Part shown: positions 15,544 through 56,782 of the stretch, piece after piece | Numbering within the stretch: position 1 is the first letter of the stretch | Layout: every line of letters starts with the position of its first letter | Assembly (NCBI GenBank): GCA_035315185.1 | Contig: DATFYE010000203.1 | Span: 26,101-90,100 of the forward strand | Length of the DNA: 64,000 nucleotides | From: Syntrophorhabdales bacterium | Lineage (GTDB): Bacteria > Desulfobacterota > Syntrophorhabdia > Syntrophorhabdales > WCHB1-27 | Direction: 5' to 3' | Program-made: the position numbers and the translations under genes | The notes under the pieces: model-generated | What the model saw: only the letters and a program-made list of their open reading frames with translations | The model's database searches: none | What the model was told of the DNA's origin: nothing

Positions 15544-16674
15544 ATGCGTCTCTGGGGTAACGAGTATAACAAAATGGAGTTTGCGGGTGCCTTCGGCGAT
15601 CTGGGTACCCTCATCCCTTTCGTCGTCGGTTACATCACCCTCAACAAAATGGACCCCGTGGGCATTCTCGTTGCCTTTGGGATCTTCAAAATCTTTGTGG
15701 GTCTTTATTTTCGGACACCTGTACCTATCCAGCCGATGAAGGCCATCGGAGGAATGGCAATTGCCCATGCTGGCACCATCACGCACGGCATGATCTGGGC
15801 CTCAGGGATTTTTACAGGAGTCTTCTGGCTTCTCATGGGGATTACCGGTGCGATAACATGGATCCAGAAGATCACCACGAAACCTGTGGTACGAGGCATC
15901 ATGCTCGGTCTCGGTCTCGGCTTTATTCGAGAGGGGCTGGGCATGATGAGGGACGAGCCGTTGTTTGCCATCGGGGGAGCGGTCTTGACACTTTTCCTCC
16001 TCAGCAGTAAACGGTACCCAGCCATGCTCGCCCTGCTTGCTTACGGGATCACGGTTGCCCTTATCCACAATCCCGCCTTGCTCCGAGATCTATCCCATAT
16101 TTCGATTCGGTTCAGGTCACCGGAGATCGGCATCCCCCGGCTCTCATGGAGTGACCTCTTGGCTGGGTTCATCATCCTCGGCCTACCTCAAGTTCCCCTC
16201 ACTCTAGGTAACGCCATCATCGGGACGGTGGCGGAGAATAACGAATATTTTCCGGACAGGCCGGTGACGGCTAAAGCGATCAGCATCGATCACGGCGTGA
16301 TGAACCTGATCAGCCCCTGTATTGGTGGTATCCCCCTGTGTCACGGGGCAGGGGGCATGGCAGGGCATATGCGTTTCGGTGCAAGAACCGGAGGGGCGCT
16401 CGTGATACTGGGCCTGATCGTGCTTTTCGCAGGGCTTTTTTTGAGCGACTCCATAGTGCTTATTTTCCAGGTTTTCCCGCGTTCCGTTCTTGGCGTAATC
16501 CTGTTTTTCGCTGGGGTAGAGCTTGCCTTGGTCGTTAAGGACGTGAGGTTGAAGGAAGAGAACCTCTTCGTTCTCCTTATCACGGCAGGGACTGCTATGT
16601 GGAATATGGGCGTGGCTTATCTGGCCGGACTTTTCATCTACTACGCCCTCAACCGCCGCTGGATCAAGCTGTGA
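15544..16674 (+). CDS. MOT1/SulP-related putative molybdate/sulfate transporter
   Basis: Polytopic protein. The N-terminal EFAGAFGDLGT.IP and PVP.QPMKAI blocks recall the MFS_MOT1 family. An alternative start is the ATG at 15574. Confidence 0.65.
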   Translation: MRLWGNEYNKMEFAGAFGDLGTLIPFVVGYITLNKMDPVGILVAFGIFKIFVGLYFRTPVPIQPMKAIGGMAIAHAGTITHGMIWASGIFTGVFWLLMGITGAITWIQKITTKPVVRGIMLGLGLGFIREGLGMMRDEPLFAIGGAVLTLFLLSSKRYPAMLALLAYGITVALIHNPALLRDLSHISIRFRSPEIGIPRLSWSDLLAGFIILGLPQVPLTLGNAIIGTVAENNEYFPDRPVTAKAISIDHGVMNLISPCIGGIPLCHGAGGMAGHMRFGARTGGALVILGLIVLFAGLFLSDSIVLIFQVFPRSVLGVILFFAGVELALVVKDVRLKEENLFVLLITAGTAMWNMGVAYLAGLFIYYALNRRWIKL

Positions 16675-16685: not shown

Positions 16686-18059
16686 CTAACCGTGTGAGCG
16701 ACACCTCACCCGTTCAAGGTACTCACGGTACTTCTCGGCAAAGGCCGGTGACTGTTGTGGGGTATGACATGTAACACAGGTCGACATGTCAGGCTTAGCC
16801 GGTTTTTCTTGCTTTGGATTTTTGAGATGCCCGTTAGCTCGTCCGTGACACGCATCGCACTGCACGTTGCGCAGCCCGGCCTGTTGATCGCGCATTGAAA
16901 AACCCCCTGGTGCATTAAATCTGGTCGTATGGCACCGGAGGCACTCGGGGTCGAACTCTCGACTAATCTGGACCAGAGATGTATAGGCCTTAGCGTGCGC
17001 CGTCTTTTGCCATTGCACATACTCAGGCTGGTGGCACTTCGAACACATTTCTGCCTTGAGAGTTTCGGTCTGCGCCCTTCCCAGTTTGAACAGACGGACA
17101 ACCTCCCCGTTATATTCTGCGATCATGGCCCTGATACCCGGATCTTCCCTTACGGCCTTATCCATTTCCGCCACTTCCCATCGCGGTATCCCGGTCTCAC
17201 CCCTGGCGACAGTTATCCTTCCAACGCGCTGTCCTCTGTTCCCTATCTCGAAAATACTCGTTTTCCCAACCATTATCGGATCACGTGGGTAGTCACTGCT
17301 CTTGCCTCTGAGGACGAGGTTAAGATCAGGAAAAGCCTCTGCCAGACGTCTGTCCTGAGCAGACTCTTGTTCTGTTAATGCAACCAGGAAATCGGCCTTG
17401 CCCTTTACCTGCGTAACGGCCCTCATTATTGACTCCAAGGGATCAATCGCATAAGCGGAAGCAGAATGGGGTACAGACATACGGTCTGCTATGCCGAAAA
17501 TTGCTACTCTCGTGTGTCCTACGCTCTTGAGAACATACGGCTGAAAAAGAAATCGTCCTTTTGCGTCGACCAGATTAGTCGAGATAAACCGTATCCGATA
17601 AGTTTTCTCGAGGGACTTAAGGAACCCGACTCCCAGGGCCAGATCGTACGGTCCGACGTTAACTGCGTCGTAACCCATTCTTGCGTAACTCGCGGCTATG
17701 AGGCCTGCCTTCAGTTTTTGTTGCTGCACTCCCTTTTCATCCAGATCCGATAAAGATCCGCCATCAACCAGGAGATTCCCCGAATCCGCAAGCAGAGTAT
17801 TCACGGTCCTTGTGCTCGCGAGCCATTTAGCCTTCCTGGCAAGACCGCCAAGATTTTTTCCTGTCTTCGCTCACCCGCACGGATCCACGTACCCCCTCAC
17901 ATCAGCCGAATGGATGATGTAAAAGTCCTCGCCGGCAGAGACGCTCCTCATAGCAAGAGACAAGAGCATGGCAAGCAAAACTGAGAGAATGATCTTGCCT
18001 GTCAGTTCGCTTCCTCTCGGAGAGCTACTCGCGGGTCCTGATAACAATTCTTTCTTCAT
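16686..18059 (-). CDS. candidate selenoprotein: exported degenerate UshA-like metallophosphoesterase domain fused to a tetrahaem cytochrome c, read through one in-frame TGA
   Basis: ORFs 17871-18059 and 16686-17804 are in the same frame and are separated only by the TGA at 17871-17873. My manual translation across the gap (AKTGKNLGGLARKAKWLASTRTV) has no other stop. The upstream ORF supplies the only signal peptide. The downstream part carries 4 CxxCH motifs (CSKCH, CLRCH, CDACH, CVTCH). The motif context is DPCG-U-AK. Confidence 0.6.
17835..17852 (-). promoter_or_regulatory. candidate bacterial SECIS hairpin
   Basis: mRNA CUUGGC-GGUCUU-GCCAGG begins 18 nt after the UGA. It forms a 6-7 bp stem with a G/U-containing apical loop that starts with GGUC. 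Confidence 0.4.
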
Positions 18060-18229
18060 TAGACGGACTATGAGTGGCGGAAAGTCTCTCGCATCCTCCG
18101 TGCAGTAATACGATACACATCGATATCATGTCGTGTCAACGAGCTGCTAGAGTCCTTGGTATCTCGCCATCTTGTTATGCGCAACAGGCCAACCCAGTAA
18201 CAAAGTTGTCTCCATGTCTTCTTCAAAAG

Positions 18230-18300: not shown

Positions 18301-18410
18301 ACGCGACACAATAGAGCAGGCTTTGGCACAGGCGAGCCTGAGCGATAGTCTGGATAATCGTGGTTTATAAATCCGGGTTTACCCGGAAAAAAACCGGGAA
18401 GGGGGAGGGC

Positions 18411-19238
18411 ATGACCATAATAACGATTTCCAGGTTTACGATGAGTGGCGGTGAAAGGCTGGCCACGTGTCTTTCAGAGAAATTAGGCATTCCATCATTG
18501 AGTCGCGAAGTGATCATTCAGGTCGCGAATCAGTTTGGCGTTTCTGAAGCCGCGCTTTGGGAACAGCTGGAAAAAACTAAAGGCGCATCCTCCGAGCGCG
18601 CCCTCTATCTGGCAGCTCTCCAGCTTGCACTGGCCGAGAGGGCTCAGCAGGGCCCTTTCGTCTACCATGGGCTCGCCGGCCATTTCCTCCTCAAAGGCAT
18701 TCCCCGAATTCTCAAGGTGGGCATCGTAGCCCCGCGTCAGTTTCGGGCCGAGGCACTCATGAGACAGAAGAACATTAGCATGGACGAAGCTGTCCGCTCG
18801 ATTCAGCGGTGGGATGAGCGCAGCATCAAATGGGCGCGTTTCCTTTACAATGTGGACTGGCTGGACCCCTCGTTGTACGATCTGGTGCTCAATATTGCCA
18901 GCGTTAGCGTGGAGAGCGCCTGTGAGATTGTCATCTGCGCGCTGAACCAGCAGGAGTTTAAGGAATTCCCTGGAACGCAGAAGATGATCGAAGATTTTGT
19001 TCTTGCCAGTCGCGTCAAGCTTCAACTGGCCACCCACGAACGGACCAAGGGGCTGGAATTGGAAGTCTCAGCGCAAGAAGGCGTGGTAAAAATCACGGGC
19101 CAGGTCCTTATGGGCGGGATGTTCTCCTGGGGAGGAAGGGAGAGCATTCGCAATGACCTGATTGAAGTCTCCAAAACGGTTCCAGGAGTCCAGAAGGTCG
19201 TGGTTGCTGTGGAAGGAAAGGCTGTTCCTCTCGAATAG
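18411..19238 (+). CDS. cytidylate-kinase-like family protein with C-terminal BON-like domain, paralogue 1
   Basis: The N-terminus ITISR..SGGE.LA..L...LGIP resembles Cytidylate_kin2. The C-terminal V.KITG......G........V..V.GV.KV is BON-like. The start is the ATG at 18411 after GGGGGAGGG. Confidence 0.7.
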   Translation: MTIITISRFTMSGGERLATCLSEKLGIPSLSREVIIQVANQFGVSEAALWEQLEKTKGASSERALYLAALQLALAERAQQGPFVYHGLAGHFLLKGIPRILKVGIVAPRQFRAEALMRQKNISMDEAVRSIQRWDERSIKWARFLYNVDWLDPSLYDLVLNIASVSVESACEIVICALNQQEFKEFPGTQKMIEDFVLASRVKLQLATHERTKGLELEVSAQEGVVKITGQVLMGGMFSWGGRESIRNDLIEVSKTVPGVQKVVVAVEGKAVPLE

Positions 19239-19272
19239 AGGCGCAAAAAATTCCTCGGGTCGAAGGAGAGCG

Positions 19273-20208
19273 ATGAATATTTATCTGCCCATTGCGCACA
19301 TGAGCGTAAACATCTTTCTCCTGGTGGGCCTCGGTGGGTTAGTAGGTTTTCTTTCGGGTCTGTTTGGCGTAGGGGGAGGCTTCCTCTTGACTCCTCTTCT
19401 TATTTTTGCCGGAATTCCGCCGATGGTTGCTGCAGCCAGCGATTCGAATCAGATCGTGGCTGGTGCTGCGTCCGGGGCCTACGCCCACAGCCGCATGGGG
19501 AACGTGGATTTCAAGATGGGCATCACCCTCCTTCTCGGCGGGATCACAGGAGGGTCCATAGGAGTGCAGATCATCAAAGTCCTGGCTGCGCTCGGCCAGG
19601 TAGACTTTGTCATTAAGCTCATCTACGTGGTAATCCTGGGACTGATCGGCGGCTTCATGTTTATCGAGAGTCTTACAGCTTTGAGACGCACACGGGCTGT
19701 GCCGGAAAATGACTTCTTCGTGGAACCGAGGGAATCAGCCCTGCGAAAGCTCGCCGCGAGACTCCCTTTGCAGATGACGTTCGAAAAATCGCACATGACC
19801 ACATCGGCTATCTTCCCGTTCTTCCTGGGGGCTGCTGTGGGACTCCTGGCTGCCATCATGGGTGTTGGCGGAGGATTCATCATGGTGCCGGCAATGATCT
19901 ATATCCTAGGCATGCCCACGATCGTCGCCATTGGCACGGATCTGTTCCAAATTGTGTTGACCTGCATCAATGTGACTATCCAGCAGGCGATACTCAACCA
20001 CACGGTTGACCTGGTTCTGGTAGTGGTCCTCTTTTTCGGTTCAACGATCGGCGCCCAAATCGGTGCCCGGGTTGGCAGGCGCCTTCGGGGAGAGCAACTG
20101 CGTATCCTTCTCGCCATCATCGTGCTGGTGGTGATGATCAAGATGGTCTACGATTTAGTGGTGACACCTGACAACGTTATCGGCCTCGCCAGGGGAGGTG
20201 GTCACTGA
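19273..20208 (+). CDS. TSUP (TauE/SafE) family anion permease 1
   Basis: It has the two-repeat signature GLFGVGGGFLLTPLL and AIMGVGGGFIMVPAM plus GTDLFQI. The start is the ATG at 19273 after GAAGGAG. Confidence 0.8.
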   Translation: MNIYLPIAHMSVNIFLLVGLGGLVGFLSGLFGVGGGFLLTPLLIFAGIPPMVAAASDSNQIVAGAASGAYAHSRMGNVDFKMGITLLLGGITGGSIGVQIIKVLAALGQVDFVIKLIYVVILGLIGGFMFIESLTALRRTRAVPENDFFVEPRESALRKLAARLPLQMTFEKSHMTTSAIFPFFLGAAVGLLAAIMGVGGGFIMVPAMIYILGMPTIVAIGTDLFQIVLTCINVTIQQAILNHTVDLVLVVVLFFGSTIGAQIGARVGRRLRGEQLRILLAIIVLVVMIKMVYDLVVTPDNVIGLARGGGH

Positions 20209-21011
20209 TGCGGTTATTGATAGTGACCTTTCTTGTCGTGACAGCTTCTTTCATCGCTTTGGTAAGTCTGGGAGATGCGGCGCAAGGGCCATCCGGGCCC
20301 GAATGTTTGCAGATGGATCCTCCATTCCTCGAAAGGACATTATTCCTTAAAGCCGTCCATACAATGACCATAACCGGGCCACGTCCTGAAGGGTGCGACA
20401 TCATTCTCAAAATTGTTTCTCCGGTCCGCGATTTCAGGCTGAACAAGTCCGGAAAGGGTCTCGGGTTTGTCTGGTTGCCCGTAGGCCATGCCGAGGTTAA
20501 GGAGATTCCCGCGATGTATCAGGTTCTGAGCTCGGCAAAGATTACAGATATCCTTCCCCCTGCCGAACAAGAGGCGACGGGCCTGACCCTGGACTACAAG
20601 GAAGTCTATGAGCAGTGCAAGGTCCATTTTGAAAAGGATATGCCGCACAATGAAATTTCCGCCCTACGCCGGGAATACGTTTCCGGATTAATCAAGATTT
20701 TCAAAGACGCAGGACTTTATCTCAGACAGGAAGGAGCGATCCAGATCAACGGGTCTCAATTCAGCGCACGAAGCGTGCAACCCTCTGACGCCCCTCTCGG
20801 TGAATATAAGGTCTTTTGCTATGCGGTCCAGGACGGCAAGGCCCGTCTCATTTTTCAGGACAAGTTTTTGGTCAAATCAGGAACGCTGGGTCAATGGCTT
20901 GCTTACCACGCCCAGGCGAGCCCGGTGATTTATGGAGTCCTGGCAGCGGTGATCGCAGTGGCAGCTGGACTACTCGTCGGTGTCGTTTTTAGAAAAGGTG
21001 GCTCACATTAG
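20208..21011 (+). CDS. periplasmic protein with C-terminal membrane anchor (architecture resembles TIGR02186/Alph_Pro_TM), TSUP partner
   Basis: Signal peptide, a soluble region of about 220 aa, a single C-terminal TM (VIYGVLAAVIAVAAGLLVGVVF) and a short basic tail. The start overlaps the TSUP stop (TGATG). It is homologous to the N-terminus of the 22239 protein. Confidence 0.6.
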   Translation: MRLLIVTFLVVTASFIALVSLGDAAQGPSGPECLQMDPPFLERTLFLKAVHTMTITGPRPEGCDIILKIVSPVRDFRLNKSGKGLGFVWLPVGHAEVKEIPAMYQVLSSAKITDILPPAEQEATGLTLDYKEVYEQCKVHFEKDMPHNEISALRREYVSGLIKIFKDAGLYLRQEGAIQINGSQFSARSVQPSDAPLGEYKVFCYAVQDGKARLIFQDKFLVKSGTLGQWLAYHAQASPVIYGVLAAVIAVAAGLLVGVVFRKGGSH

Positions 21012-21312: not shown

Positions 21313-22230
21313 ATGAATATCTTCCTACCCATCGCACAGATGAGCGTGAGCATCCCGGTAATTTTTGCTGCGGGCGGGGTCGTCGGGCTGCTGTCCGGCC
21401 TCTTCGGCGTCGGCGGTGGGTTTCTGCTCACGCCGCTGCTGATGTTTTTAGGTATATCACCCGCCGTCGCGGCAGCTTCCGACGCGGCGGCTATCGTAGC
21501 AGGATCGACAACCGGTACGCTTGAACATTCACGGGGGCGCACAGTCGACTACAAAATGGGTTTCTGGCTCTTCGTGGGCGGATCCGTCGGTAGCGTCGCC
21601 GGCGTGGAATTGATCCACTGGCTTAACCGCTTCGGGCCTGCCAACAGTGCCATTCGCATCTTGTATTTAGTCATGCTCGGGGTGATCGGTGGCATTATGC
21701 TGGTGGAGTCAATCGGGCAATGGCGGCGCGGTGCGTATATGTCCGAGAGAAGATTCGAGCCGATACGCGCGCGGAGATGGGTCGAGGCCCTGCCGTTCCA
21801 GGTTCGATTTCCAAAGTCGGATATCCAGGTTTCGTTGCTGGTTCCGATTGGCTTCGGCATGCTGGCCGGTGTACTTGCGGCGATGATGGGTGTGGGCGGT
21901 GGCTTTATCATGATCCCGCTGATGCTTTACATATTGCGCATGCGGATACACGTGGCAGCGGGCACAAGTCTTTTTCAGATCCTTTGCACCTGCATGCTGG
22001 TCACCGTGTTGCAAGCCACGAAGAACCATACAGTAGACTTCGTGCTCGCCTTCCTCTTGGCTATAGGCACGACGACCGGCGCAATGATCGGTACCAGACT
22101 CGGGCGTCGATTGCGGGCCGACCAGCTCAAGATTCTAATGGCTCTAATCATCCTCATAGTAGCCTGCCAGATAGGGTGGAATCTTTTCAGCACGCCCGCG
22201 ACCTTCCTTTCGCATGTCGCGGGCGAATGA
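21313..22230 (+). CDS. TSUP (TauE/SafE) family anion permease 2
   Basis: It is a paralogue of 19273-20208, starting MNIFLPIAQMSV where that protein starts MNIYLPIAHMSV. It has GLFGVGGGFLLTPLL and AMMGVGGGFIMIPLM. GC-rich. Confidence 0.8.
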   Translation: MNIFLPIAQMSVSIPVIFAAGGVVGLLSGLFGVGGGFLLTPLLMFLGISPAVAAASDAAAIVAGSTTGTLEHSRGRTVDYKMGFWLFVGGSVGSVAGVELIHWLNRFGPANSAIRILYLVMLGVIGGIMLVESIGQWRRGAYMSERRFEPIRARRWVEALPFQVRFPKSDIQVSLLVPIGFGMLAGVLAAMMGVGGGFIMIPLMLYILRMRIHVAAGTSLFQILCTCMLVTVLQATKNHTVDFVLAFLLAIGTTTGAMIGTRLGRRLRADQLKILMALIILIVACQIGWNLFSTPATFLSHVAGE

Positions 22231-22238: not shown

Positions 22239-25200
22239 GTGAATAAGCAAAAAGCTCATGCTCTAAGCGTCGTGAGTATTGCAATCGGGCTGGTGTGGAT
22301 ACTTACCATTCCAGTCGCGCATGCGGCTAGGTTTTCTACAGTCGAGCCCACGCGTATCTCGGCCGGCGTGTTTTATGACGGCGCCACCTTGCACGTTCGG
22401 GGCAGCATCGGTGAGGGATCTCAAGTAGTGGTCCGGATAAAAGGGGCGTCAGAGCATCATGTGTTCAACCGTCGCGGCAAGATCGGCGGGATGGTGTGGG
22501 GCGGCATCGAACATGTCACGTTCCGGAACGCACCGAGCTTTTATGCGGTTTACACCTCGGTGGCCTTAGCGACGACGGCTACCCCGGCCTTGCGCGCAGA
22601 GCTCCAGCTCGGCTATGATCCGCTGGAGGCGAAGATGGAGGTTGAAGGAACAAAGGTCGATAAACACGTGATGATCACCCACTTCGTGCGCTTCAAGGAG
22701 AGCGAAGGTCTGTACCGCATCGCATCCGGAGCGGTGCACCTCGAAGACCCTCAAGGGGGCTCTCGCTCTTTTGATGTAGCGGTACCGTTGCCTGCTAGCA
22801 CGCCCCCCGGTGATCTGGAAGTCGCTGTCTTCGAACTCGCCAATGGCGCAGTGATCCGTGAAGAGACAGCCCGCGTGAGTCTTGAGCGGGTTGGCTTACC
22901 CGCCGATCTCTTTCGCCTGGCGCATGAGAACGGTATCCTCTTTGGGCTGCTCGCACTCTTCGTCACCGTTACAACCGGAGTCGTTGTGGATTTCCTCGGG
23001 CGAGTCGGACGAAGGGGGGCATTGTATAACCGCGGTCCCATGCTGGATGTGGCGGCAGACCTGCATCGGCTGGTTGCGGAAGGCCTGTTTAGCGTTCGCG
23101 TGAGACCGCGCTCCCCCGCGGCAGTGGAGCGCCTTCACGAGAAGTACCGACTCTTCCGTAACCTTCTCACGCTGAACAACGAACTCCTCGAACTCCTTGC
23201 AGAACTGGAGGAAGAATCGTCGTGGTCTTCACTGCGCCACCCGCGGGTGCGCATGGGTATCCGGGCGCTCTTCGACGGCACCGAGGATATGGTCCAGGTA
23301 TTGAACCAGCTCACAGGAAACCGCTATTTTGACCTGAAGAATGTGATCGCGAGCGTGCGTGCCGATGTTCTGGCCTACCTCGAGAAAATGCCAGAACGCG
23401 AGGGGAACTCCCTCATGCTCCAGTTGAGGGAGATCAGCTCGAAGACCGCGGATCAGGTGGGAGGCAAGGCCGTGAACCTGGCACGCGTGGAGTGCGATCT
23501 CGGAATGCGCGTGCCCGAGTCCTTCGTGGTAACCACGGAGGCTTATCGACAGTTGCTGGAGGTTGAAGGGCTCGCAGGCAAGTTGCGCACCGTCCTTGCG
23601 CCTGCGCGCCTCGACGCGCCGGAGGACTTTCGCCGGCGCTGCGAGATGGCACAAGGTTTGGTCCAGGAGGCGTATTTGCCGCCGGCTGTAGAGGAGGCTC
23701 TTCGCGCTGGTTACCGCGCCGCAGGCATCCCAGCGGGAGAGTGCGTCGCGGTGAGATCCAGCGCGGCGGGTGAAGATAGTGAGTTGTCCTTTGCCGGCCA
23801 GTTCGAAACGCTCCTCAACGTGCCTGAATCGGAGGTGCCGGAGGCCTGGAGGCGGGTTGTGGTCAGTCGGTTTTCACCTCGGGCCGTGTTCTATCGGCGG
23901 GCAGCAGGTCTCGCCGAAGTCGACACGCCCATGGCTGCGCTCATTCAGCGTATGGTGCGCGCCACGACCTCCGGTGTAATGTTCACACGTCGGCCTGAGC
24001 ACCCGAAGGTACCCGAGCTTCTCATCACCGCTGTCCGCGGGCTTGGCCTCGAAGTATCTGCCGGCATTGCGAGCGCCGACGAATTCGTAGTATCGCGTAC
24101 TCAGCCATCGCGGATCCTGGAGCGACGCATCGCCCTGAAGCCGGATCGCCTGGTAAGCGGGGAAGCCGGCGGCGTCACCAGAGTGGAGGAAGCAGCTGAG
24201 GAACAGGATAGTGCGGCGATCACCGACGAGGAGGTTATTCGGATCGCCGACGCGGGTCTCAGTCTCGATCGCTACTTTCGCAGTCCCCAAGACGTTGAAT
24301 GGGCTATCGACAGCGAGGGCGTACTCTTTATCATGCAGTCCCGGCCGATCAGGACCGACCGGACAAAGACCGCACCTGGAGACACACCCCGCAACGCCGT
24401 GCTCCTTTTGCACGGTGGGGAGCCTGTCTGGGCTGGACGGGCCGTCGGCCCGGTCCACGTGGCGAGGAGCCCGGAAGAGGAGGACCGCACTCCGACCGGT
24501 GCCCTCCTTGTGGTTCCCCAGCTCCTGCCTGATTGCGTGCGTCTTCTTCCGCGGGTGTGCGGTATCGTGGTGGAGCGCGGAACCGTCACCGGCCACGCTG
24601 CGTCGATCTTGCGGGAGTTTCGGGTGCCGAGCCTCTTCGGCGTGACAGGCGCGCTTGATAAGCTGGTCTCCGGCCAGGTAGTGAGTCTCGACGTGGCTGC
24701 TCGCAGTCTGTTTGAGGGCGTTCTTTGGCCCGAGCTGCGCCAGCGTCTTGCTGTCAGGTTGCAGGGCCGCCGGACTACAGGATTGCCGGAGGTCCTGGCG
24801 GGAAAGCTCACGAAGCTGAGTGGGAGCGGTTTTATGGGTACCTGGGCGTGTCAGTCCCTGCATGATGTCATCCGGTTCGCCCATGAGATGGCCATCCAAT
24901 CGATGTTCGACATCGGTGACCGGCTTCTGGATTCGCCGGTTGGGGGCGTCAAGCGGCTTGATTCCCCTTCGAAGGCGTACATGCACATCGTCGATCTCGG
25001 GGGAGGGCTGCGGCCCGAGGCATTGTCGAACCAAAGCGTGAAGCCGGAGGATGTTGTATCGATTCCGTTCCAAGGACTCTGGCGCGGCTTGAGCGACCCG
25101 CGGTTCGAACGCAGCTCGGACGTCCCGGCCCAATCGATTCGGTCCGCCATCGGGACTGGCCTGGCAAGCGCAGGCCCGCGGGAGGGAAGCCCTAACTACG

Positions 25201-25616
25201 CCTGCATCACGGAGAGCTACCTTAACCTCAATTCACGGCAGGTCCACCACTTCGCGATCGTCGACGCGTTCCTTTCTGACAACCAAAATAACAACCACAT
25301 CAGTCTTCGCATGAAAGGCGGCGGCGGTGCCCCTTGGCAACGCAACCTTCGGGCAGAGTTTGTCGCAGAGGTCCTACGTTTGCACCATTTTACCGTCGAC
25401 GTCGCAGGCGATCTCGTGAATGGCTGGACCCGAGGACTCGACCTTTCCATGGGCGCTGACAAGCTGACAATGATCGGGCACTTGCTCAGCTTTTCAGCGC
25501 TGCTCGATCTCTGGATAACGGGCGAAGCCCAGATGAAACGATACGTTGCGGAATTCGTGGAAGCGGAGGCTCGCCGCTCAGCAGATGATTCTCAAGCCGA
25601 TCCAAAGGGGGTATGA
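22239..25616 (+). CDS. fusion protein: periplasmic/anchor TSUP-partner domain + dikinase core (ATP-grasp + swivel His) + family C-terminal domain (P1)
   Basis: 1125 aa with a GTG start after GAGGTGAG. Residues 1-250 are homologous to the 20208 protein (NRRGKIGGMVW vs NKSGKGLGFVW; PSFYAVYTS vs PAMYQVLSS). A TM helix follows. The remainder carries VGGKAVNL, VRSSAAGEDSELSFAGQ, DVEWAID, TVTGHAASILREF and the C-terminal NY.CI.ESYLNLNSR.VHHF..VDA block. Confidence 0.8.
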   Translation: MNKQKAHALSVVSIAIGLVWILTIPVAHAARFSTVEPTRISAGVFYDGATLHVRGSIGEGSQVVVRIKGASEHHVFNRRGKIGGMVWGGIEHVTFRNAPSFYAVYTSVALATTATPALRAELQLGYDPLEAKMEVEGTKVDKHVMITHFVRFKESEGLYRIASGAVHLEDPQGGSRSFDVAVPLPASTPPGDLEVAVFELANGAVIREETARVSLERVGLPADLFRLAHENGILFGLLALFVTVTTGVVVDFLGRVGRRGALYNRGPMLDVAADLHRLVAEGLFSVRVRPRSPAAVERLHEKYRLFRNLLTLNNELLELLAELEEESSWSSLRHPRVRMGIRALFDGTEDMVQVLNQLTGNRYFDLKNVIASVRADVLAYLEKMPEREGNSLMLQLREISSKTADQVGGKAVNLARVECDLGMRVPESFVVTTEAYRQLLEVEGLAGKLRTVLAPARLDAPEDFRRRCEMAQGLVQEAYLPPAVEEALRAGYRAAGIPAGECVAVRSSAAGEDSELSFAGQFETLLNVPESEVPEAWRRVVVSRFSPRAVFYRRAAGLAEVDTPMAALIQRMVRATTSGVMFTRRPEHPKVPELLITAVRGLGLEVSAGIASADEFVVSRTQPSRILERRIALKPDRLVSGEAGGVTRVEEAAEEQDSAAITDEEVIRIADAGLSLDRYFRSPQDVEWAIDSEGVLFIMQSRPIRTDRTKTAPGDTPRNAVLLLHGGEPVWAGRAVGPVHVARSPEEEDRTPTGALLVVPQLLPDCVRLLPRVCGIVVERGTVTGHAASILREFRVPSLFGVTGALDKLVSGQVVSLDVAARSLFEGVLWPELRQRLAVRLQGRRTTGLPEVLAGKLTKLSGSGFMGTWACQSLHDVIRFAHEMAIQSMFDIGDRLLDSPVGGVKRLDSPSKAYMHIVDLGGGLRPEALSNQSVKPEDVVSIPFQGLWRGLSDPRFERSSDVPAQSIRSAIGTGLASAGPREGSPNYACITESYLNLNSRQVHHFAIVDAFLSDNQNNNHISLRMKGGGGAPWQRNLRAEFVAEVLRLHHFTVDVAGDLVNGWTRGLDLSMGADKLTMIGHLLSFSALLDLWITGEAQMKRYVAEFVEAEARRSADDSQADPKGV

Positions 25617-25713: not shown

Positions 25714-28305
25714 TCAGTGTGTGACTGTTTTCTTGAAAGTGTAATTCCCCTGCATGAAGGCTTTGATGTACCAATCAACTACATTGTCACTGTACATCGC
25801 CATATCGAGCTGGCGCGCGCAACACATGAGCCTGCCCAGGTAATCGAGCTTCTGTTCTATAGCCCGGCACTCGTATTTCCCTAATCGGGCCCGCAACCAG
25901 TCTCCTTTCACCTCTACATCAAAGTCCAGGTTCTTTAAAACCCCCGCAATGAAGCGGACCCTGCGGGATCTCCTTTCCGAGCTGGAGCCTCCTCCCATAA
26001 ACTGAAATGAAATATAGTTATTATTCACCTCGGGCGAGCAGTAGGCATCGACTGTGCTGAAATGATAGGCCAGACGCGAACTGAAGTTCATATATTCCTT
26101 GGAGATGATGGCGTAACTCTTTTCACCCAATGGAGTGCCCGTGCGGGCGGAATCGGAGAGTGTATTCAACATAACGGAGGCAAAGCCTTTGAGGTCAACC
26201 TCTACCATCCCAGTCCAGCAGATCTTCGGATGGGTTATTCCTCTCCACAGGGCCTGCATCGGTCTCGAAACGATCTCTTCCGGTGGTACAGAACCCCCGG
26301 CCTTGTCCGGGACAGATAAGCCCCCGCCCAGATCGATGATGTACAGATTGATAGGGATGTCGGAAACAACCTGCTTGGCCTGTTTGTCAGAAGACGTTTT
26401 CCAGTCGTGTAGATGGAACATCTCCTGGATGGCGACTTCATGCATGAAGCGGGTCAGGTCATGAAAGGTCTGGCAGTTTTCAGGTTTGAAAGAGCCTCCT
26501 TTCGTGTCCCATAAATTGAGAGATGCGGTACGCGAGAGGAGCTCCTCCACTTTTCTCACGAGGGGGGTCTCCCCACGGATTTCCACTTCTCTTCTCTTAT
26601 GGCCCCGGACCAACTCCTGCACCAATCCGTCGTAGACCTTGTTGTGGTAGGCATCTACTGTGATCATCTGGCCGTGTCGCAGCAGTTTGGTGGCATCCTT
26701 AGCATCGACGATAGTAGGGACTTGAGATTCTCTCGCGAGAGAAGCCATATGGCCGGCCACGTTACCTACCTCAGTGATGATTGCCGAGGCTTCATCCATG
26801 ACGGTGGCATATTTCGGATGGGTACTCTTAACGACCAGAACAGCCCCATGTGGAAACGGGTGCAAATCCCGGTCTTCAAGCACCATGTGGACTGGACCAG
26901 CCCCAACGCCCGGTGCAGCCGCGAGACCCCAATTGATGAGGACTCTATCTGTATAAGGATCGTGCTCGACGTCTTCCTCTTTCGTCTCCGTCGACCCCGA
27001 AGAAATTTTTAGATTGCGCGTTTGCAATATATAAATCTTCCCTTCTGAATCTATTGCCCATTCGATATCACGAGGGCTCTGATAATACTCCTCCAAGAGC
27101 ATGGCGTAGCGAAAGAGTTTTTTAATCTCGTCTTCATTGAGGCACGGCTGCTGCTGAAGTTCGTCGGGAACCGGCACTTCGGTTACGCCCCCCGAGTCCC
27201 TGCAAACGAGCATTGTCCTTTGTTCAGGGATCCTTTTTTCCAAAAGAAGGCCGTTTTCTTTGGAGACTACATAAACGTTCGGGCTGGCCCGCTCCGCAAC
27301 GAGTTCCCCCAAACCCCATATGGCGCTGATGATCACCACGTTTGGGTCGCTATGGCTGGGGTCCCGGGAGAATATCACTCCGCTGGTTCTAGCACAGATC
27401 ATGGCTTGGCAACCCACAGCCATAGGGATGTCTTCTTCGTTGAATCCTTTTTCTTTCCAATAGAAGATGGCTTCAGGCGTGAATTTGCTGGCGACAACTT
27501 CTTTGTAAGCGGAGAGGAGGCGATCGGGACGGACGTTCAACACGGTGGCGTATTGTCCTGCGAAGCTGACATCGCCGTCTTCCTTGATTGCACTGCTACG
27601 GACCGAGACAGAAATTTCTCCTTGCCCGCCTGTCCTCACGGCCGTGGATAGTCGATTGTATGCTTGGAAGATGGCTTCTTCCAATTCGAGCGGAATAGAT
27701 GCATCGTGAATGGCTTCCCGAACCTCGTGGCTGATTCGATCCAAGGCTTGCTGGTCACGAATGTCAAGGGCAGCTAATCGCTTCTTGATCTCTTTTCCGA
27801 AAACCATTTTTTCGACAAAGATTTTGTAAGCGTACGCGGAGACCGCAAACCCTTCCGGAATGGGAAGCCCGACATGGTTTCGCATTTCTCCCAGATTAGC
27901 GCTTTTGCCCCCCACTGTTTCGCCCATCTCCCTGGTAACCTCTTCCAGCGGGATAGTCAGGGGGGAGAGAGCGATCTCTCTGACACCGAAAACCTTTTCT
28001 TCAATCCCGTGGTCTATCTTTTCAAACACCTCATACAGCAAACCGTACCGATCTGGAACCATGCTGTTCAGCGCGTCGATCATCTGCAGGACCTTTTCCC
28101 GTACTTGATTGTAACTGTCCCGTATGTACCGACGGTCGAAGTGATAATCTCCCTGGGCATACTTCCCTTCCATATCACCCATGACCTCTAGGGCGGCGTT
28201 ATTCGCCTCGAGGAGGGCCTGAAACGATTGAAAGCGTTCTTTTAGACTCGGGAGTTTCTGCTTTTTAAAATATTTTTGGAGATTCAATAATCCAAAAAGG
28301 GCCAC
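25714..28305 (-). CDS. dikinase-core protein with family-specific C-terminal domain (P2)
   Basis: 863 aa with a GTG start after AAGGAG. Motifs present: VGGKSANLGEM, PEGFAVSAYAY, VRSSAIKEDGDVSFAGQ, DIEWAIDSEGKIYILQTR, NVAGHMASLARE, and C-terminal DLGGG, ALWRG, NFSSRLAYHFSTVDA, NYISFQFMGGG, RQLDM. Confidence 0.8.
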   Translation of the reverse strand: MALFGLLNLQKYFKKQKLPSLKERFQSFQALLEANNAALEVMGDMEGKYAQGDYHFDRRYIRDSYNQVREKVLQMIDALNSMVPDRYGLLYEVFEKIDHGIEEKVFGVREIALSPLTIPLEEVTREMGETVGGKSANLGEMRNHVGLPIPEGFAVSAYAYKIFVEKMVFGKEIKKRLAALDIRDQQALDRISHEVREAIHDASIPLELEEAIFQAYNRLSTAVRTGGQGEISVSVRSSAIKEDGDVSFAGQYATVLNVRPDRLLSAYKEVVASKFTPEAIFYWKEKGFNEEDIPMAVGCQAMICARTSGVIFSRDPSHSDPNVVIISAIWGLGELVAERASPNVYVVSKENGLLLEKRIPEQRTMLVCRDSGGVTEVPVPDELQQQPCLNEDEIKKLFRYAMLLEEYYQSPRDIEWAIDSEGKIYILQTRNLKISSGSTETKEEDVEHDPYTDRVLINWGLAAAPGVGAGPVHMVLEDRDLHPFPHGAVLVVKSTHPKYATVMDEASAIITEVGNVAGHMASLARESQVPTIVDAKDATKLLRHGQMITVDAYHNKVYDGLVQELVRGHKRREVEIRGETPLVRKVEELLSRTASLNLWDTKGGSFKPENCQTFHDLTRFMHEVAIQEMFHLHDWKTSSDKQAKQVVSDIPINLYIIDLGGGLSVPDKAGGSVPPEEIVSRPMQALWRGITHPKICWTGMVEVDLKGFASVMLNTLSDSARTGTPLGEKSYAIISKEYMNFSSRLAYHFSTVDAYCSPEVNNNYISFQFMGGGSSSERRSRRVRFIAGVLKNLDFDVEVKGDWLRARLGKYECRAIEQKLDYLGRLMCCARQLDMAMYSDNVVDWYIKAFMQGNYTFKKTVTH

Positions 28306-28768: not shown

Positions 28769-29743
28769 ATGGATAGCACGTCTCTTTTCCCGATCGTACA
28801 GTACTGGGCTCACGTGCAGGGCATGATAACGCATGTGACCTTGACCGGAGTAATCTTCCTGGGACTCTTCATCGGTCTCCTGGCGGGGTTCTTCGGGATC
28901 GGCGGGCAGCTTTTCATGACGCCTCTTCTCAATATCCTGTTCAACATCCCTTACAATGTGGTGGTGGGCTCTGAACTCTGCCAGATGTTGGGCCATTCTT
29001 CGATGAACGCTTTGAAATACAGACTCTCGCGTAATGTGGATTATAAGCTCGCTTTTCTCCTGGCGATCGGGGGCGCTGCCGGCGTAGAAGGCGGAGCGAG
29101 ACTACTCGAACTATTGAAATTTGCTAAAGCGGCAACATTTCTGGGCAGGCCCCTTGATCTGATGTTTGTGATAATCAGCCTCTTGAATGCAGCTCTTCTC
29201 CTCTGGATTGGTACTACGATTTACAGGGAGACAAGGGTGGCGCACCGGCGGTCCGGAGTGGGAACCATTGCCACCGTTCAGATGGATGTCACGTCCAGGC
29301 TGCAAACGATTTGTATTCGGCCAATGATATCCCTGCCTGTTTCGGGGATTGAGAATGTTTCTCTCTGGATCGTTTTGGGCGTCGGGTTTTCAGTCGGCCT
29401 GCTCGTTGGTTTTCTCGGTGTCGGGGGCAGCTTTATCGGCCTGCCGGCTCTAGTTTACATTCTCGGCTGCCCCATGGGAGTGGCGATCAGCACAGACCTT
29501 TTCCAAAGTCTCTTTGTGACGGGATACGGTGCCTATACTCACTCCTTTAAAGGGAATATCGACCTCACCCTAGCCATTGTTCTTCTCACCTGTACCACGC
29601 TCGGAACACAGGTGAGTCTTCCTTTGGCCAGGAGATACAGCGGATCGAAGGTGCGCCAGGCATTCGCTTTTCTAGCCTACCTGGTGGTGCTTCTACTGAT
29701 CATTAAGTTCTGCAGTCTTATTGGAATGATCAGGGTTTTATGA
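28769..29743 (+). CDS. TSUP (TauE/SafE) family anion permease 3
   Basis: 324 aa and polytopic. It has GFFGIGGQLFMTPLL and GFLGVGGSFIGLPAL plus STDLFQS. Confidence 0.75.
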   Translation: MDSTSLFPIVQYWAHVQGMITHVTLTGVIFLGLFIGLLAGFFGIGGQLFMTPLLNILFNIPYNVVVGSELCQMLGHSSMNALKYRLSRNVDYKLAFLLAIGGAAGVEGGARLLELLKFAKAATFLGRPLDLMFVIISLLNAALLLWIGTTIYRETRVAHRRSGVGTIATVQMDVTSRLQTICIRPMISLPVSGIENVSLWIVLGVGFSVGLLVGFLGVGGSFIGLPALVYILGCPMGVAISTDLFQSLFVTGYGAYTHSFKGNIDLTLAIVLLTCTTLGTQVSLPLARRYSGSKVRQAFAFLAYLVVLLLIIKFCSLIGMIRVL

Positions 29744-29884: not shown

Positions 29885-31159
29885 ATGTCCGACGGAGGAC
29901 GTTTGAACCTCGGTAGACAGGTTTTTGAGTTCTTGCAAGCTGCGTCCGTCGCCCATGCCAAGTGGGATCTGGAAGTCTCCACGAACATAATAAAAAGTCC
30001 GAAGCGACTCTTTATCCTCCTCATCCTTCTGCTCCCTATCCTTGCGGTGGCGGTCTGTGAAGCGACGATACTCGGGGGAGAAAGCGCCTATGCTCCGGCC
30101 ACGTATTCCACCAAGATATTCTTGGTTTCCATCGTGATCGGTCTTTGCGCCGGCTTGATCACCGGCTGCATCGGTGCCGGGGGAGGGTTCATTATTACCC
30201 CGGCTCTCATGGCTGCTGGTATAAAAGGTATACTCGCCGTTGGTACAGACCTCTTCCACATATTTGCCAAGGCAATCATGGGGACCGCCATTCATCGGAA
30301 GTTAGGTAACGTTTCAGTGAAGTTGGCCGCGGCCTTCCTGGTGGGGTCGGCAGTAGGCACTGTTCTTGGCGGGACTGTCAACAAGGCAATCTATAACATA
30401 AATCCCCTTCTCAGCAATCTGTTTATTAGCGTCATTTATTCTTTTCTTCTTGGATTTCTCGGGTTCTACGGGCTTTACGATTTTCTCAGGGCGACTCGCA
30501 AAACAACGAAGTCCTCGGCCAAAGACAAGGGGCAAGGAGCGCACTCGGGCCGCACGGGGATGACCGGCGTGGCAGTCAAGCTTCAGCATCTGAATATTCC
30601 GCCTATGCTCACGTTCGATGAAGACCTCGGGGGTCGTCGTATCCCTGCTGTAGTCGTGATGCTGGGAGGGCTGATAGTCGGAACTCTCGCGTCCCTCATG
30701 GGCGTGGGGGGCGGCTTTGTGACCTTTCCCATGTTCGTTTATATTTTCGGGGTTTCCTCCATGACGACGGTGGGGACGGATATCCTCCAGATCATCGTCA
30801 CAGCAGGCCTTGGCGCAATCGGTCAGTACGCCATTTACGGCTACGTTTTCTACTCCCTGGCCATGGGGATGCTTCTGGGTTCCCTGATCGGTATTCAAGT
30901 GGGAGCCTTGACCACCAAAGTGGTCAGAGGAATCCATATCAGGGGATTCTATGCTGTCTCTATTCTGGCTGGGTTCGTCAACAGGGCAGCAACTCTCCCC
31001 AAACAAGTGAACGAACTGGAGATCCTCAAGATCCCTTCCTGGATCTCAGGACCGATCGATCTCATAGGTACCATTGTTTTCTGGGCTGTAACCGGTTTCT
31101 TTGGTCTCTGGGTTTTGAGCAAGTTCTTTGGTAACCTCAAAGCCCTTCGGGAGGAATAG
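29885..31159 (+). CDS. TSUP-family permease 4, long form
   Basis: 424 aa. It has GCIGAGGGFIITPAL..GTDLFHI and SLMGVGGGFVTFPMF..GTDILQI. The start codon is uncertain. Confidence 0.75.
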   Translation: MSDGGRLNLGRQVFEFLQAASVAHAKWDLEVSTNIIKSPKRLFILLILLLPILAVAVCEATILGGESAYAPATYSTKIFLVSIVIGLCAGLITGCIGAGGGFIITPALMAAGIKGILAVGTDLFHIFAKAIMGTAIHRKLGNVSVKLAAAFLVGSAVGTVLGGTVNKAIYNINPLLSNLFISVIYSFLLGFLGFYGLYDFLRATRKTTKSSAKDKGQGAHSGRTGMTGVAVKLQHLNIPPMLTFDEDLGGRRIPAVVVMLGGLIVGTLASLMGVGGGFVTFPMFVYIFGVSSMTTVGTDILQIIVTAGLGAIGQYAIYGYVFYSLAMGMLLGSLIGIQVGALTTKVVRGIHIRGFYAVSILAGFVNRAATLPKQVNELEILKIPSWISGPIDLIGTIVFWAVTGFFGLWVLSKFFGNLKALREE

Positions 31160-32226: not shown

Positions 32227-33297
32227 ATGGATTTTCTCTATCTTCAATTACCCATATCAGGTGTCGTCATTTTCTGGCCAGGACTCGTTATCCTCGGCTT
32301 CGGCTGCGGAATGATCGGCGGCTTTTTTGGCATGGCCGGCGCCTGGATGGTAACTCCCGGTCTTAATATTTTGGGCCTTCCCATGGCCTTTGCCATCGGC
32401 ACCGATATCGCTCACATGGCTGGGAAGTCCATTATTTCCACCATGAGGCACGGCAAGTTCGGCAATGTCGATTACCGGATAGGGTTCATCATGGTTTTGG
32501 GCACGGTCATCGGGATCGAAGCGGGCGCCCAGATGATCATGTGGTTCGAACGAATCGGCAAAGTAGACCTTTATGTACGCTGGCTTTACGTTATTCTCCT
32601 CACCCTGATTGCCTGGATGGTTTTCGGTGACCTGGCCAAAAGAAAGAAGAAGGAACGGGAGGCTGCCGCAGCCGGAAAGACATTGGACGACCTGGCTACC
32701 GGGATCGAATGGTATAAGACCCTGCACAAAATCCGCATCCCTCCGATGATCCATTTTAAGACCGCCGGGATTTACTGCTCCATGTGGCTGCCCGTGCTCA
32801 TAGCCTTTCTTACGGGCTGGCTTGCGGGTATTCTGGGCATTGGCGGCGGCTTGATCCGGATGCCCTCCCTCGTCTATTTCATGGGATGCCCTACCCACAT
32901 AGCTGTGGGGACCGACCTTTTTGAAGTCATGATTTCCGGTCTCTATGGAGCCGCCACGTACGCGTATAAGGGTCGGGTGGAATTCGTTGCCGCAGTCATA
33001 ATGCTGCTCGGCGCTGCTGTCGGGGCTCAGATCGGAACGGTTGCAACTAAATATGTCAAGGGGTACGGGATCAGAGTTGCCTTTGGTTGGGCCGTGATCG
33101 GGTGCGGGCTCTCCGTAGTCATGAAGCTCCTTCCCACGTATTTTCCGTCCTGGAAGCCCGTCACGAACGTTGCAGCAACAATACTGATCCTTGGACTGGT
33201 AGGCAGCATATCACTCTATATCCTTGTTCGGATGCTCAGGGGCGCCGCACAGGAATTGGCAGCGAAGAAGGCGGGGGCTTTGAGCGTGTCGAATTAA
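32227..33297 (+). CDS. TSUP-family permease 5, long form
   Basis: 356 aa with a GAAGGAGG Shine-Dalgarno. It has GGFFGMAGAWMVTPGL..GTDIAHM and GILGIGGGLIRMPSL..GTDLFEV. Confidence 0.75.
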   Translation: MDFLYLQLPISGVVIFWPGLVILGFGCGMIGGFFGMAGAWMVTPGLNILGLPMAFAIGTDIAHMAGKSIISTMRHGKFGNVDYRIGFIMVLGTVIGIEAGAQMIMWFERIGKVDLYVRWLYVILLTLIAWMVFGDLAKRKKKEREAAAAGKTLDDLATGIEWYKTLHKIRIPPMIHFKTAGIYCSMWLPVLIAFLTGWLAGILGIGGGLIRMPSLVYFMGCPTHIAVGTDLFEVMISGLYGAATYAYKGRVEFVAAVIMLLGAAVGAQIGTVATKYVKGYGIRVAFGWAVIGCGLSVVMKLLPTYFPSWKPVTNVAATILILGLVGSISLYILVRMLRGAAQELAAKKAGALSVSN

Positions 33298-50070: not shown

Positions 50071-50178
50071 CAAATTATGACATACCGTTGATGCTTGTTG
50101 CAAACAATTCTGCAAGCCGCGTTAATCAGCGGCTTCGTCGCTGGCGGGATACATATCTCAACGGAGAAGGGGGGAGCA

Positions 50179-56778: not shown

Positions 56779-56782
56779 TTCG

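Follow-up and report, generated by a model that had tools for sequence, protein, structure and literature searches.

A reading frame interrupted by one TGA codon

On the minus strand of the window (the whole 64-kb stretch of DNA analysed here), 458 codons run in one frame from 18059 to 16686, and the sole stop inside this frame is codon 63, a TGA at 17873..17871. Read through this codon, the frame would form a complete coding sequence (16686..18059, minus strand) of 457 residues with selenocysteine (Sec) at position 63 and a TAG stop at 16688..16686. A match to the NCBIfam model NF041198 marks its product as a UshA-like PCGU (seleno)protein, which carries a tetrahaem domain at the C-terminus. 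The part upstream of the TGA translates as MKKELLSGPASSSPRGSELTGKIILSVLLAMLLSLAMRSVSAGEDFYIIHSADVRGYVDPCG, and the 66-nt gap that follows the TGA translates as AKTGKNLGGLARKAKWLASTRT. The initial annotation had proposed that one in-frame TGA joins two ORFs at this position; we recovered the same single frame, and re-translation of the gap gave an identical peptide.

Residues 1–42 (17934..18059, minus strand) form a predicted Sec-type signal peptide, recognised from the translation and from comparable leaders in homologues. It has a basic n-region, a hydrophobic core (IILSVLLAMLLSLAM) and VSA preceding the predicted cleavage site. Cleavage after VSA(42) would leave 20 residues ahead of the TGA rather than the 15 originally stated. 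Hydrophobic leaders comparable to this one are present at the N-termini of all the homologues, and the window protein is predicted to be exported. Assignment of the start codon to ATG 18059 is uncertain: ahead of the hydrophobic core no canonical start lies further upstream, and a TTG at codon 5 is the only alternative.

A 5'-nucleotidase/UshA/SoxB-type metallophosphatase-fold domain follows (approximately residues 45–315, 17115..17927, minus strand). A PDB profile search matched it to the N-domains of 5'-nucleotidases, UshA and SoxB with E values of 1e-21 to 1e-31. An AF2 model of the full-length Cys homologue P0028, which stood in for the window protein, matched 3ivd, 2ush and 4uwq in Foldseek (E 1e-16 to 1e-19). 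The window protein gave no match to Pfam Metallophos (PF00149).

The C-terminal portion (approximately residues 336–457, 16689..17054, minus strand) is a tetrahaem cytochrome c554-like domain, as indicated by Pfam Cytochrome_C554 (PF13435; E=4.7e-18, 66.4 bits against a gathering threshold of 20.8) and by a profile match to cytochrome c554 itself (PDB 1bvb, E=5e-18). The four CxxCH motifs already noted in the downstream part were all located on the minus strand: CSKCH (17045-17031), CLRCH (16943-16929), CDACH (16859-16845) and CVTCH (16778-16764). Their CxxCH residues are all invariant among 33 homologues; outside these motifs, only H355 and H411 are invariant histidines among the homologues aligned. 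The cytochrome c554 equivalog model NF043010 scored 34 bits against a cut-off of 400.

Decoding of codon 63

The codon in question lies in a P-C-G-U motif (residues 60–63, 17871..17882, minus strand; predicted Sec codon 17873..17871), which we delimited by homologue alignment. Read-through had been expected to create a C-G-U motif, and residues 60–63 indeed read P-C-G-UGA, with P-C-G-[U/C] invariant in 63 of 63 aligned family members. An alignment of Cys and Sec forms had been suggested at the outset. At the exact position of the window TGA, 80 related genome loci from many phyla have TGA (53), Cys (26) or a masked codon (1), and the protein is conserved on both sides. Distant full-length homologues align PCGC with PCG-TGA, and the closest relatives (L081 and L083, 66–70% identity) read YVDPCG-TGA-[AV][RK]TGK. 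This alignment establishes a Sec/Cys pair at codon 63, with Sec as the predicted reading of the TGA forms.

These data bear directly on whether the TGA is instead a genuine stop, leaving either a pseudogene or two genes that encode a 62-aa leader peptide and, from the GTG at 17804, a 372-aa cytochrome that is cytoplasmic or otherwise exported. Public gene callers agree with such an arrangement: the 100% identical P0001 is a 372-aa call, an 88-aa upstream gene is called separately in L081, and TGA is the commonest stop codon in the window. However, the 22 codons from the TGA to the GTG are conserved as protein (AKTGKNLGGLARKA.. versus ARTGKNLGGLARKA..), and the 53 loci with TGA at the same codon are independent and span several phyla, while 26 others encode Cys. 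Moreover, maturation would not be possible for a haem protein that has no signal peptide of its own, and the N-terminal beta-strand and PCGU loop belong to the metallophosphatase fold. We therefore regard a genuine stop as very unlikely. In the public protein collections that we searched, every one of the closer homologues (P0001-P0020, 36–100% identity) is mis-called as an N-terminally truncated protein that starts after the TGA.

Downstream of the TGA lies a bacterial SECIS-like hairpin, UCUUGGCG-GUCU-UGCCAGGA (17834..17853, minus strand), which we identified by RNAfold, a recoding test and conservation of its core. We found the shorter form first described, CUUGGC/GGUCUU/GCCAGG, 18 nt downstream of the UGA; RNAfold lengthens it to an 8-bp stem with the loop GUCU and an energy of -10.5 kcal/mol. 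In this form the hairpin starts 17 nt after the UGA and its apical loop is 25 nt from it. Both the MFE and the centroid structures contain the hairpin in an 81-nt context; in a 51-nt context it appears in the centroid only, the MFE being a competing fold. The underlying codons specify L-G-G-L-A-R, with the conserved Gly-Gly codons at the loop. Published bSECIS criteria comprise a loop of 3–9 nt, a stem of at least 4 bp, a G within the first two loop positions, a distance of 16–37 nt from the UGA and an energy of at most -7.5 kcal/mol (PMC13188914). The window hairpin lies within the limits for the four numeric criteria checked (loop/stem size, loop G, spacing and energy).

Its folding stability alone does not exceed chance. 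The folding energy of the hairpin region was not significantly better than that of dinucleotide shuffles (z -1.85 and -0.69), and synonymous recoding of 54 nt gave a non-significant z=-1.06 for overall folding energy in the window. Given this weak signal, the whole-region comparison was replaced by a position-specific hairpin test, in which 0.7% of synonymous recodings (n=300) were as stable as the window hairpin. A Gly-Gly-capped hairpin better than at least 95% of synonymous recodings was found in 27 of 48 Sec genes but in none of the 12 Cys genes (p=3e-7 by a Mann-Whitney comparison of Sec with Cys genes, not corrected for phylogeny). L081-L083 and L035-L038 all carry the same central 18 nt, CUUGGCGGUCUUGCCAGG (17852..17835), including relatives at 31% protein identity. 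The significance of the hairpin thus comes from the synonymous-recoding test and cross-species conservation and not from stability relative to shuffles. Taken together, these comparisons demonstrate, at the level of sequence, selection on a SECIS-like hairpin; the original proposal of a SECIS element stands on the bSECIS numbers and synonymous-site selection, but not on stability. Rfam SECIS families had no match in the whole window at gathering thresholds, and a search of 17600-18100 at E up to 10 returned a chance lncRNA match only. Bacterial SECIS elements are short and diverse, so this null result carries no information.

The UGA could also be read through without selenium, either by a near-cognate or suppressor tRNA inserting Trp or Cys or by Sec machinery inserting Cys under selenium limitation. 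The continuous frame would fit such a reading, the Cys homologues show that Cys is acceptable at codon 63, and selA, selB, selD and tRNA-Sec were not found within the 64-kb window. Against it stand the SelB-type hairpin, which is at canonical distance and is conserved and selected in the TGA forms only, and the curation of the family as a selenoprotein. Signs of TGA reassignment are also absent: TGA is the ordinary stop of 24 of the 42 window genes, which argues against genome-wide reassignment. We consider selenium-free read-through highly improbable. A scan of the window for other in-frame TGA junctions gave no further convincing candidate. A sequencing or assembly error that turned a Cys codon (TGT or TGC) into TGA would need one substitution, and Cys family forms exist, but this explanation is negligible: L081/L082 and L083, the two nearest independent assemblies, have the same TGA, as do 53 of 80 loci that are more distant, along with a hairpin that Cys forms lack.

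With Sec written as Cys, the read-through protein scored 322.8 bits (E=3.6e-96) against NF041198, "UshA_like_PCGU, UshA-like (seleno)protein", for which 275 bits is the curated equivalog cut-off; the relatives L001, L035 and L053 scored 351–484 bits. The model spans the tetrahaem domain, as L053 matches positions 4–518 of 519. A model for a CxxU-motif family (cut-off 140 bits) gave 33.7 bits for the window protein, whose motif is CxU. A UshA-like COG0737 selenoprotein with a CxU motif was listed in 2008 (Zhang and Gladyshev; PMC2398784) and again in reviews from 2022 (PMC9312934) and 2026 (PMC13188914), which bears out the mention of such selenoproteins in the initial annotation. The window gene is a further member of this catalogued family, in which the tetrahaem fusion is already curated, and the call is not new. 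The family extends over Desulfobacterota, Acidobacteriota, Latescibacterota, KSB1, TA06 and others. We found no experimental study of the UshA-like PCGU family in the literature.

Overall, the read-through interpretation put forward initially is strengthened by the Cys/TGA homologues, the SECIS-like hairpin, the family listing and the score above the NF041198 cut-off. The in-frame TGA is almost certainly the selenocysteine codon of one exported gene that combines a 5'-nucleotidase-like domain with a four-haem cytochrome. With a probability of about 0.93, 18059..16686 (minus strand) is a single gene whose product is an exported selenoprotein belonging to the curated UshA-like PCGU family. Sec would then be expected at codon 63 of the window protein itself. 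In the mechanism we propose, this UGA would be decoded during translation by SelB and tRNA-Sec, which would be recruited by the stem-loop that begins 17 nt further on; the conserved Gly-Gly codons would furnish its apical loop (G-U-C-U or GGUCUU).

From its sat, aprA and qmo genes, the host is a sulfate reducer, and sulfate reducers are a guild rich in selenoproteins. The locus adds a sulfate-reducer member to a widespread selenoprotein family; it leaves knowledge of Sec decoding unchanged and reveals no new kind of system. It should be annotated as a single selenoprotein gene of 457 residues, with codon 63 marked as a translation exception, and not as a 372-residue "hypothetical cytochrome" and a stray small ORF.

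Loss of dimetal ligands and a putative redox function

The metal-binding motifs of the metallophosphatase fold are extensively altered. Where the classical relative P0042 aligns with DVH, GGD, GNHE, THCG and GGHSH, the window protein has DVR for DxH, SGN for GD, GPYD for GNHE, TEQE for the motif IV His and RGKSS for GHxH. Across the family the His of DxH is never kept, and the Asn-His of GNH[ED] is replaced by E/P and then L/Y/K. The fold is thus accompanied by loss of the dimetal phosphatase ligands throughout the family, which makes hydrolysis unlikely. The equivalog models for the hydrolytic relatives were likewise not matched at their cut-offs. Classical UshA (NF007109) scored 19 bits against 600, with neither the dimetal motifs nor PF02872 found, and SoxB thiosulfohydrolase (TIGR04486) scored 44.2 bits against 550.

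The Cys-Gly-Sec sequence lies a few residues after the degenerate first ligand motif (DVR for DxH) and is therefore probably close to the former metal site. Ligand loss, this placement of Cys-Gly-Sec and the tetrahaem module together suggest that the mechanism is most likely redox rather than hydrolytic. We envisage a product that is exported via the Sec pathway, loses its signal peptide and acquires four c-type haems in the periplasm. Its N-terminal domain retains the 5'-nucleotidase/SoxB metallophosphatase fold with the dimetal ligands gone, and a cytochrome c554-like tetrahaem module stands where a nucleotide-binding cap domain usually forms the C-terminus. In this scheme, a thiol/selenol (selenenylsulfide) pair would work on some small substrate in the periplasm, with electrons passing to or from the Cys/Sec site through the four haems. 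With just two invariant distal histidines for four haems, a haem could have an unusual ligand or an open site.

Our best guess for the role of the PCGU protein is thus that of a redox site in the periplasm, formed by Cys/Sec and wired through the four haems. Its substrate could be a sulfur compound, in view of the kinship with SoxB and a host that reduces sulfate. A broader proposal is tentative, and we hold it to be somewhat less probable than its converse: that the PCGU family may constitute a class of periplasmic oxidoreductases in which Cys-Gly-Sec replaces the dimetal centre and is wired directly to four c-type haems, the likely substrates being inorganic species of sulfur or selenium, or some other small oxidant. 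If true, this would be a new catalytic use of the metallophosphatase scaffold. The family-wide ligand loss and fused tetrahaem module present a clear, testable case for a redox enzyme. We rejected gene neighbourhood as a functional clue since it is not conserved across the family. The arrangement Cytidylate_kin2-TauE-Alph_Pro_TM-TauE-PPDK is conserved among the closest relatives only, and the neighbours in other lineages are unrelated (AFOR/Fer4, multihaem cytochromes, or a thioredoxin-HEAT protein).

Comparison with known systems

Like other members of the NF041198 family, the window protein has a signal peptide, P-C-G-U, a degenerate 5'-nucleotidase-like N-domain and a C-terminal tetrahaem c554-like domain. 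It differs in being a short form, with 457 residues compared to a model length of 519, and matches the model in two stretches because it does not contain the ~70-residue helical insert of L053-type members. A Desulfatiglans/Acidobacteriota subgroup has THQH and GGHH where the window protein has TEQE and RGKSS, the motif IV and V histidines being gone from the latter.

The E. coli fdhF SECIS offers a reference for the hairpin. In more than 5400 E. coli genomes, fdhF contains a 46-mer comprising its UGA and SECIS at 100% identity. This 46-mer folds with GGUC as the apical loop, 18 nt downstream of the UGA, which bears out the likeness to the fdhF loop remarked on initially. Both elements are stem-loops within the coding sequence, directly downstream of the UGA, and carry GGUC(U) in the apical loop. 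Unlike in fdhF, the window loop is 24–25 nt from the UGA, a spacer 6–7 nt longer, and its stem is unrelated in sequence and has no evident bulged U.

With E. coli UshA and other 5'-nucleotidases (1ush, 2ush, 3ivd; CD73 4h2i) the window protein shares the N-domain fold (profile E 1e-22 to 1e-31) and, by prediction, a periplasmic or extracellular location, but the 5_nucleotid_C cap (PF02872) is absent and a tetrahaem domain is present instead. SoxB (TIGR04486; 2wdc, 4uwq) is among the best non-nucleotidase matches. It is also a periplasmic member of the 5'-nucleotidase superfamily and acts in sulfur metabolism; unlike the window protein, however, it is a dimanganese hydrolase and contains neither haem nor Sec. 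Finally, the C-terminal domain resembles Nitrosomonas europaea cytochrome c554 (PF13435; 1bvb, 1ft5) in its four CxxCH motifs and c554-like arrangement, although it is a fused domain here and a free electron carrier there.

Reading frame and recurrence of the internal TGA

Translation of the window DNA from 18059 to 16686 on the minus strand gave 458 codons in one frame, with a sole internal stop, the TGA at codon 63 (17873..17871). The initial annotation had proposed that this TGA joins a signal-peptide ORF to a tetrahaem cytochrome ORF in a selenoprotein gene. The finding is real, and its interpretation is supported by a Sec/Cys pair among relatives, by a downstream hairpin and by a match to the curated family NF041198. 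We put the probability that the locus is a single, Sec-decoded gene at about 93%. The 22 codons from the TGA to the GTG of the listed 372-aa ORF translate to AKTGKNLGGLARKAKWLASTRT, exactly reproducing the inter-ORF translation reported earlier. Although the single frame and lone TGA stand, the 15-residue tail assigned to the signal peptide does not, as 20 residues separate the likely signal-peptidase site (between VSA and GE) from the TGA. The N-terminal 62 residues consist of a long leader, MKKELLSGPASSSPRGSELTGKIILSVLLAMLLSLAMRSVSA, and then GEDFYIIHSADVRGYVDPCG. Four CxxCH motifs lie within the C-terminal 120 residues, and Pfam Cytochrome_C554 is matched with E=4.7e-18.

A CTG at codon 19, immediately ahead of the hydrophobic core, is preceded by a Shine-Dalgarno-like GAGAGGAAG at 18003-18020 (minus strand; codons 14-17). 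The ATG at 18059 has no clear Shine-Dalgarno sequence in front of it. Which codon truly initiates translation is uncertain, and with it the extent of the signal-peptide n-region. A MOT1-type (molybdate/sulfate-family) transporter gene at 15544-16674 (plus strand) is convergent with the selenoprotein gene, with 11 bp between the stop codons.

Queried with the read-through product, a collection of 5.8 billion proteins yielded 49 homologues. The closer ones (P0001-P0020, 36-100% identity) are all 330-400 aa long, start after the TGA position and align to just 72-85% of the query, the pattern left by gene callers that halt at an unrecognised Sec codon. Six distant homologues (P0028, P0029, P0030, P0036, P0038 and P0040) are full length and align PCGC to PCG-TGA. 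We also read the DNA of 80 related loci drawn from representative genomes in GTDB. An in-frame TGA occupies exactly the codon-63 position in 53 of these, Cys in 26 (CGC, CNC, CDC, CSC or CC variants), and the position is masked in one. Both flanks of the TGA are conserved among Sec loci, for example GYLEPCG-TGA-ADTGEMLGGLYKK and GELEPCG-TGA-KKAPLGGLARRA. In the two closest relatives with retrievable DNA (L081/L082 and L083; 66-70% identity) the corresponding sequences are YVDPCG-TGA-ARTGKNLGGLARKAQWL and YVDPCG-TGA-VKTGKILGGLARKAQWL, and P-C-G-[U/C] is invariant across 63 family members that were reconstructed and aligned. TGA cannot have been reassigned globally, since 24 of 42 window genes end in TGA as a normal stop, and a single sequencing error cannot account for recurrence at the same codon across loci.

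Sec forms occur in Desulfatiglans, Desulfobacterales, other Thermodesulfobacteriota, Acidobacteriota, Latescibacterota, KSB1, TA06 and Abyssobacteria; hosts of Cys forms are mainly Planctomycetota, Hydrogenedentota and Lentisphaerales. Motif variants (Sec forms SCGU, PCAU and KCGU; Cys forms CNC, CDC, CSC and adjacent CC) were seen at L027, L030, L031, L043, L045 and L047 and at L044, L049, L058, L062, L078 and L079. Two PCGU genes lie ~3.8 kb apart on a single contig of a TA06 MAG (L041, 3046 and 6895). Each of two Desulfatiglans MAGs holds a Sec form together with a Cys paralogue (L014/L018; L008/L022), and the Gly-Gly hairpin is weakened in these Cys paralogues.

A SECIS-like hairpin after the UGA

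The hairpin CUUGGC/GGUCUU/GCCAGG was found where the initial annotation had placed it. RNAfold lengthens it to UCUUGGCG-GUCU-UGCCAGGA (17853..17834), an 8-bp stem with a loop of GUCU, or GGUCUU with the G-U closing pair opened, 25 nt from the UGA and at -10.5 kcal/mol. The bacterial SECIS consensus comprises an apical loop of 3-9 nt on a 4-16-bp upper stem, a G among the first two loop nucleotides, most often with G or U after it, a UGA-to-loop distance of 16-37 nt and a free energy of -7.5 kcal/mol or below (PMC13188914); the window hairpin agrees on all four points. The likeness to E. coli fdhF is also valid: the fdhF element folds so that a GGUC apical loop lies 18 nt beyond its UGA, and the 46-nt UGA and SECIS sequence is 100% identical within fdhF of >5400 E. 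coli genomes. A search of Rfam gave no model matching the hairpin, which we count as uninformative.

The energy of the hairpin alone is not beyond chance (shuffle z-scores -1.85 and -0.69), and the element sits on conserved L-G-G-L-A-R codons, its loop Gs coming from the Gly-Gly codons. RNA-level constraint was distinguished from protein-level constraint by generating 300 synonymous recodings of the post-UGA segment of each gene, with codons sampled according to that gene's own usage, and scoring the best simple hairpin with a loop overlapping the Gly-Gly codons. Only 0.7% of recodings reached the energy observed in the window (control mean -1.8 kcal/mol). Among distinct Sec genes, 27 of 48 fell in the top 5% relative to their own recodings, in contrast to none of 12 Cys genes (Mann-Whitney p=3e-7, indicative rather than exact because the sequences are phylogenetically related).

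The window, L081-L083 and L035-L038 share an identical 18-nt core, CUUGGCGGUCUUGCCAGG; the last four, two of them from Latescibacterota and two from unclassified-bacterium MAGs, have only ~31% protein identity to the window protein. Other lineages retain a hairpin by different means: CUGGGA-GGUCU-UCCCAG, with an Ala-to-Pro change, CUUGGCG-GUGU-CGCCAAG, and ACAGCUC-GGA-GGGCUGU, shifted by one codon.

Fold, lost metal ligands and possible function

Against PDB sequences, the family profile matches the N-terminal metallophosphatase domains of 5'-nucleotidases (3ivd, CD73, UshA) and SoxB (E 1e-21 to 1e-31), and its C-terminal part matches cytochrome c554 (1bvb, E 5e-18). P0028, a full-length Cys homologue, was modelled with AlphaFold2 (mean pLDDT 83, pTM 0.83; N-domain mostly >90), and in Foldseek the model matched 3ivd, 2ush, CD73 and SoxB (E 1e-16 to 1e-19). 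In the alignment, PCG(C/U) lies a few residues past the classical first metal-ligand motif (DxH); judged from its place in the P0028 sequence, it falls in the model after the first strand (residues 26-31) and before the helix at 51-59.

The window protein has lost the canonical metal ligands. Where the classical relative P0042 has DVH (motif I, DxH), GGD (motif II, GD), GNHE (motif III, GNH[ED]), THCG (motif IV, His) and GGHSH (motif V, GHxH), the window protein aligns DVR, SGN, GPYD, TEQE and RGKSS. None of the 63 family members keeps the motif I His, and the motif III Asn-His is replaced by E/P then L/Y/K. Pfam Metallophos has no match in the window protein, and the 5_nucleotid_C cap domain is absent, with the tetrahaem module in its place. 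Outside the CxxCH motifs, H355 and H411 are the only invariant His residues, and the distal positions of two haems may accordingly be open or occupied by something other than His. Two homologues (P0044, P0045) fuse the UshA-like domain to an N-terminal thioredoxin/AhpC-TSA domain and have no C-terminal cytochrome, a further hint of a scaffold used in thiol redox chemistry.

The comparative and SECIS evidence suggests that UGA-63 would be read as Sec by SelB and tRNA-Sec on the downstream hairpin; no Sec machinery is encoded within the 64-kb window. Bacterial c-type cytochromes mature outside the cytoplasm, and the leader and four CxxCH motifs suggest export by the Sec pathway with haem attachment in the periplasm. 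Given the ligand loss, the invariance of PCG[U/C] and the fusion to an electron-transfer domain, the Cys-Gly-Sec pair could form a thiol/selenol redox site near the former dimetal centre position, trading electrons with partners via the four haems. The ligand-loss analysis leads us to propose, tentatively and with considerable doubt, that the family is a haem-wired Cys/Sec redox enzyme, not an esterase. A sulfur compound is a reasonable guess for the substrate, based on kinship with SoxB and the sat-aprA-qmo genes of the host; gene neighbourhoods vary among lineages and lend no support to it.

The host is recognisable as a sulfate reducer from a dissimilatory sulfate-reduction locus at 51346-61850 that encodes ATP sulfurylase (51346-52602), an AprA-like flavoprotein (53515-55398), QmoA/QmoB-like proteins (55516-56778; 56519-59050, with a FlpD/MvhD domain), a Fer4 protein (59063-60247) and two CxxCxxCC proteins (60258-61850). 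An unusual repeated cluster (18360-51015) adjoins the selenoprotein gene. It contains two Cytidylate_kin2 genes (18360-19238, 50095-51015), five TauE/SafE permeases (19162-20208, 21313-22230, 28769-29743, 29885-31159, 32227-33297), an Alph_Pro_TM gene (20208-21011), a second Alph_Pro_TM domain fused to a PPDK_N/PEP-utilizers protein (22239-25616), four more PPDK_N and PEP-utilizers paralogues of ~860 aa (25714-28305, 36934-39531, 40144-42753, 47291-49843), DUF4881 (33332-33943) and two dCache histidine kinases. In L081 and L083 the gene's homologue likewise has Cytidylate_kin2-TauE-Alph_Pro_TM-TauE-PPDK, in that order, next to it.

Relation to known selenoprotein families

The gene belongs to an already described, curated selenoprotein family, and the family itself is not new. 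"COG0737, UshA-like", with the motif CxU, was counted among the major families of selenoproteins in the GOS metagenome, with 76 Sec and 92 Cys sequences (PMC2398784). The UshA-like family is listed in prokaryotic selenoproteome reviews of 2022 (PMC9312934) and 2026 (PMC13188914), the latter citing NF041198. Identity as classical UshA, SoxB, Nitrosomonas c554 or "UshA-like family 2" was rejected, each score falling far under the cut-off. The window protein scores 322.8 bits against the curated equivalog NCBIfam NF041198 ("UshA_like_PCGU, UshA-like (seleno)protein"; cut-off 275). Since a long-form relative (L053) spans model positions 4-518/519, haem domain included, the tetrahaem fusion is already part of the known family definition. 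Compared with that family, the window protein represents a short form that lacks an insert of ~70 residues.
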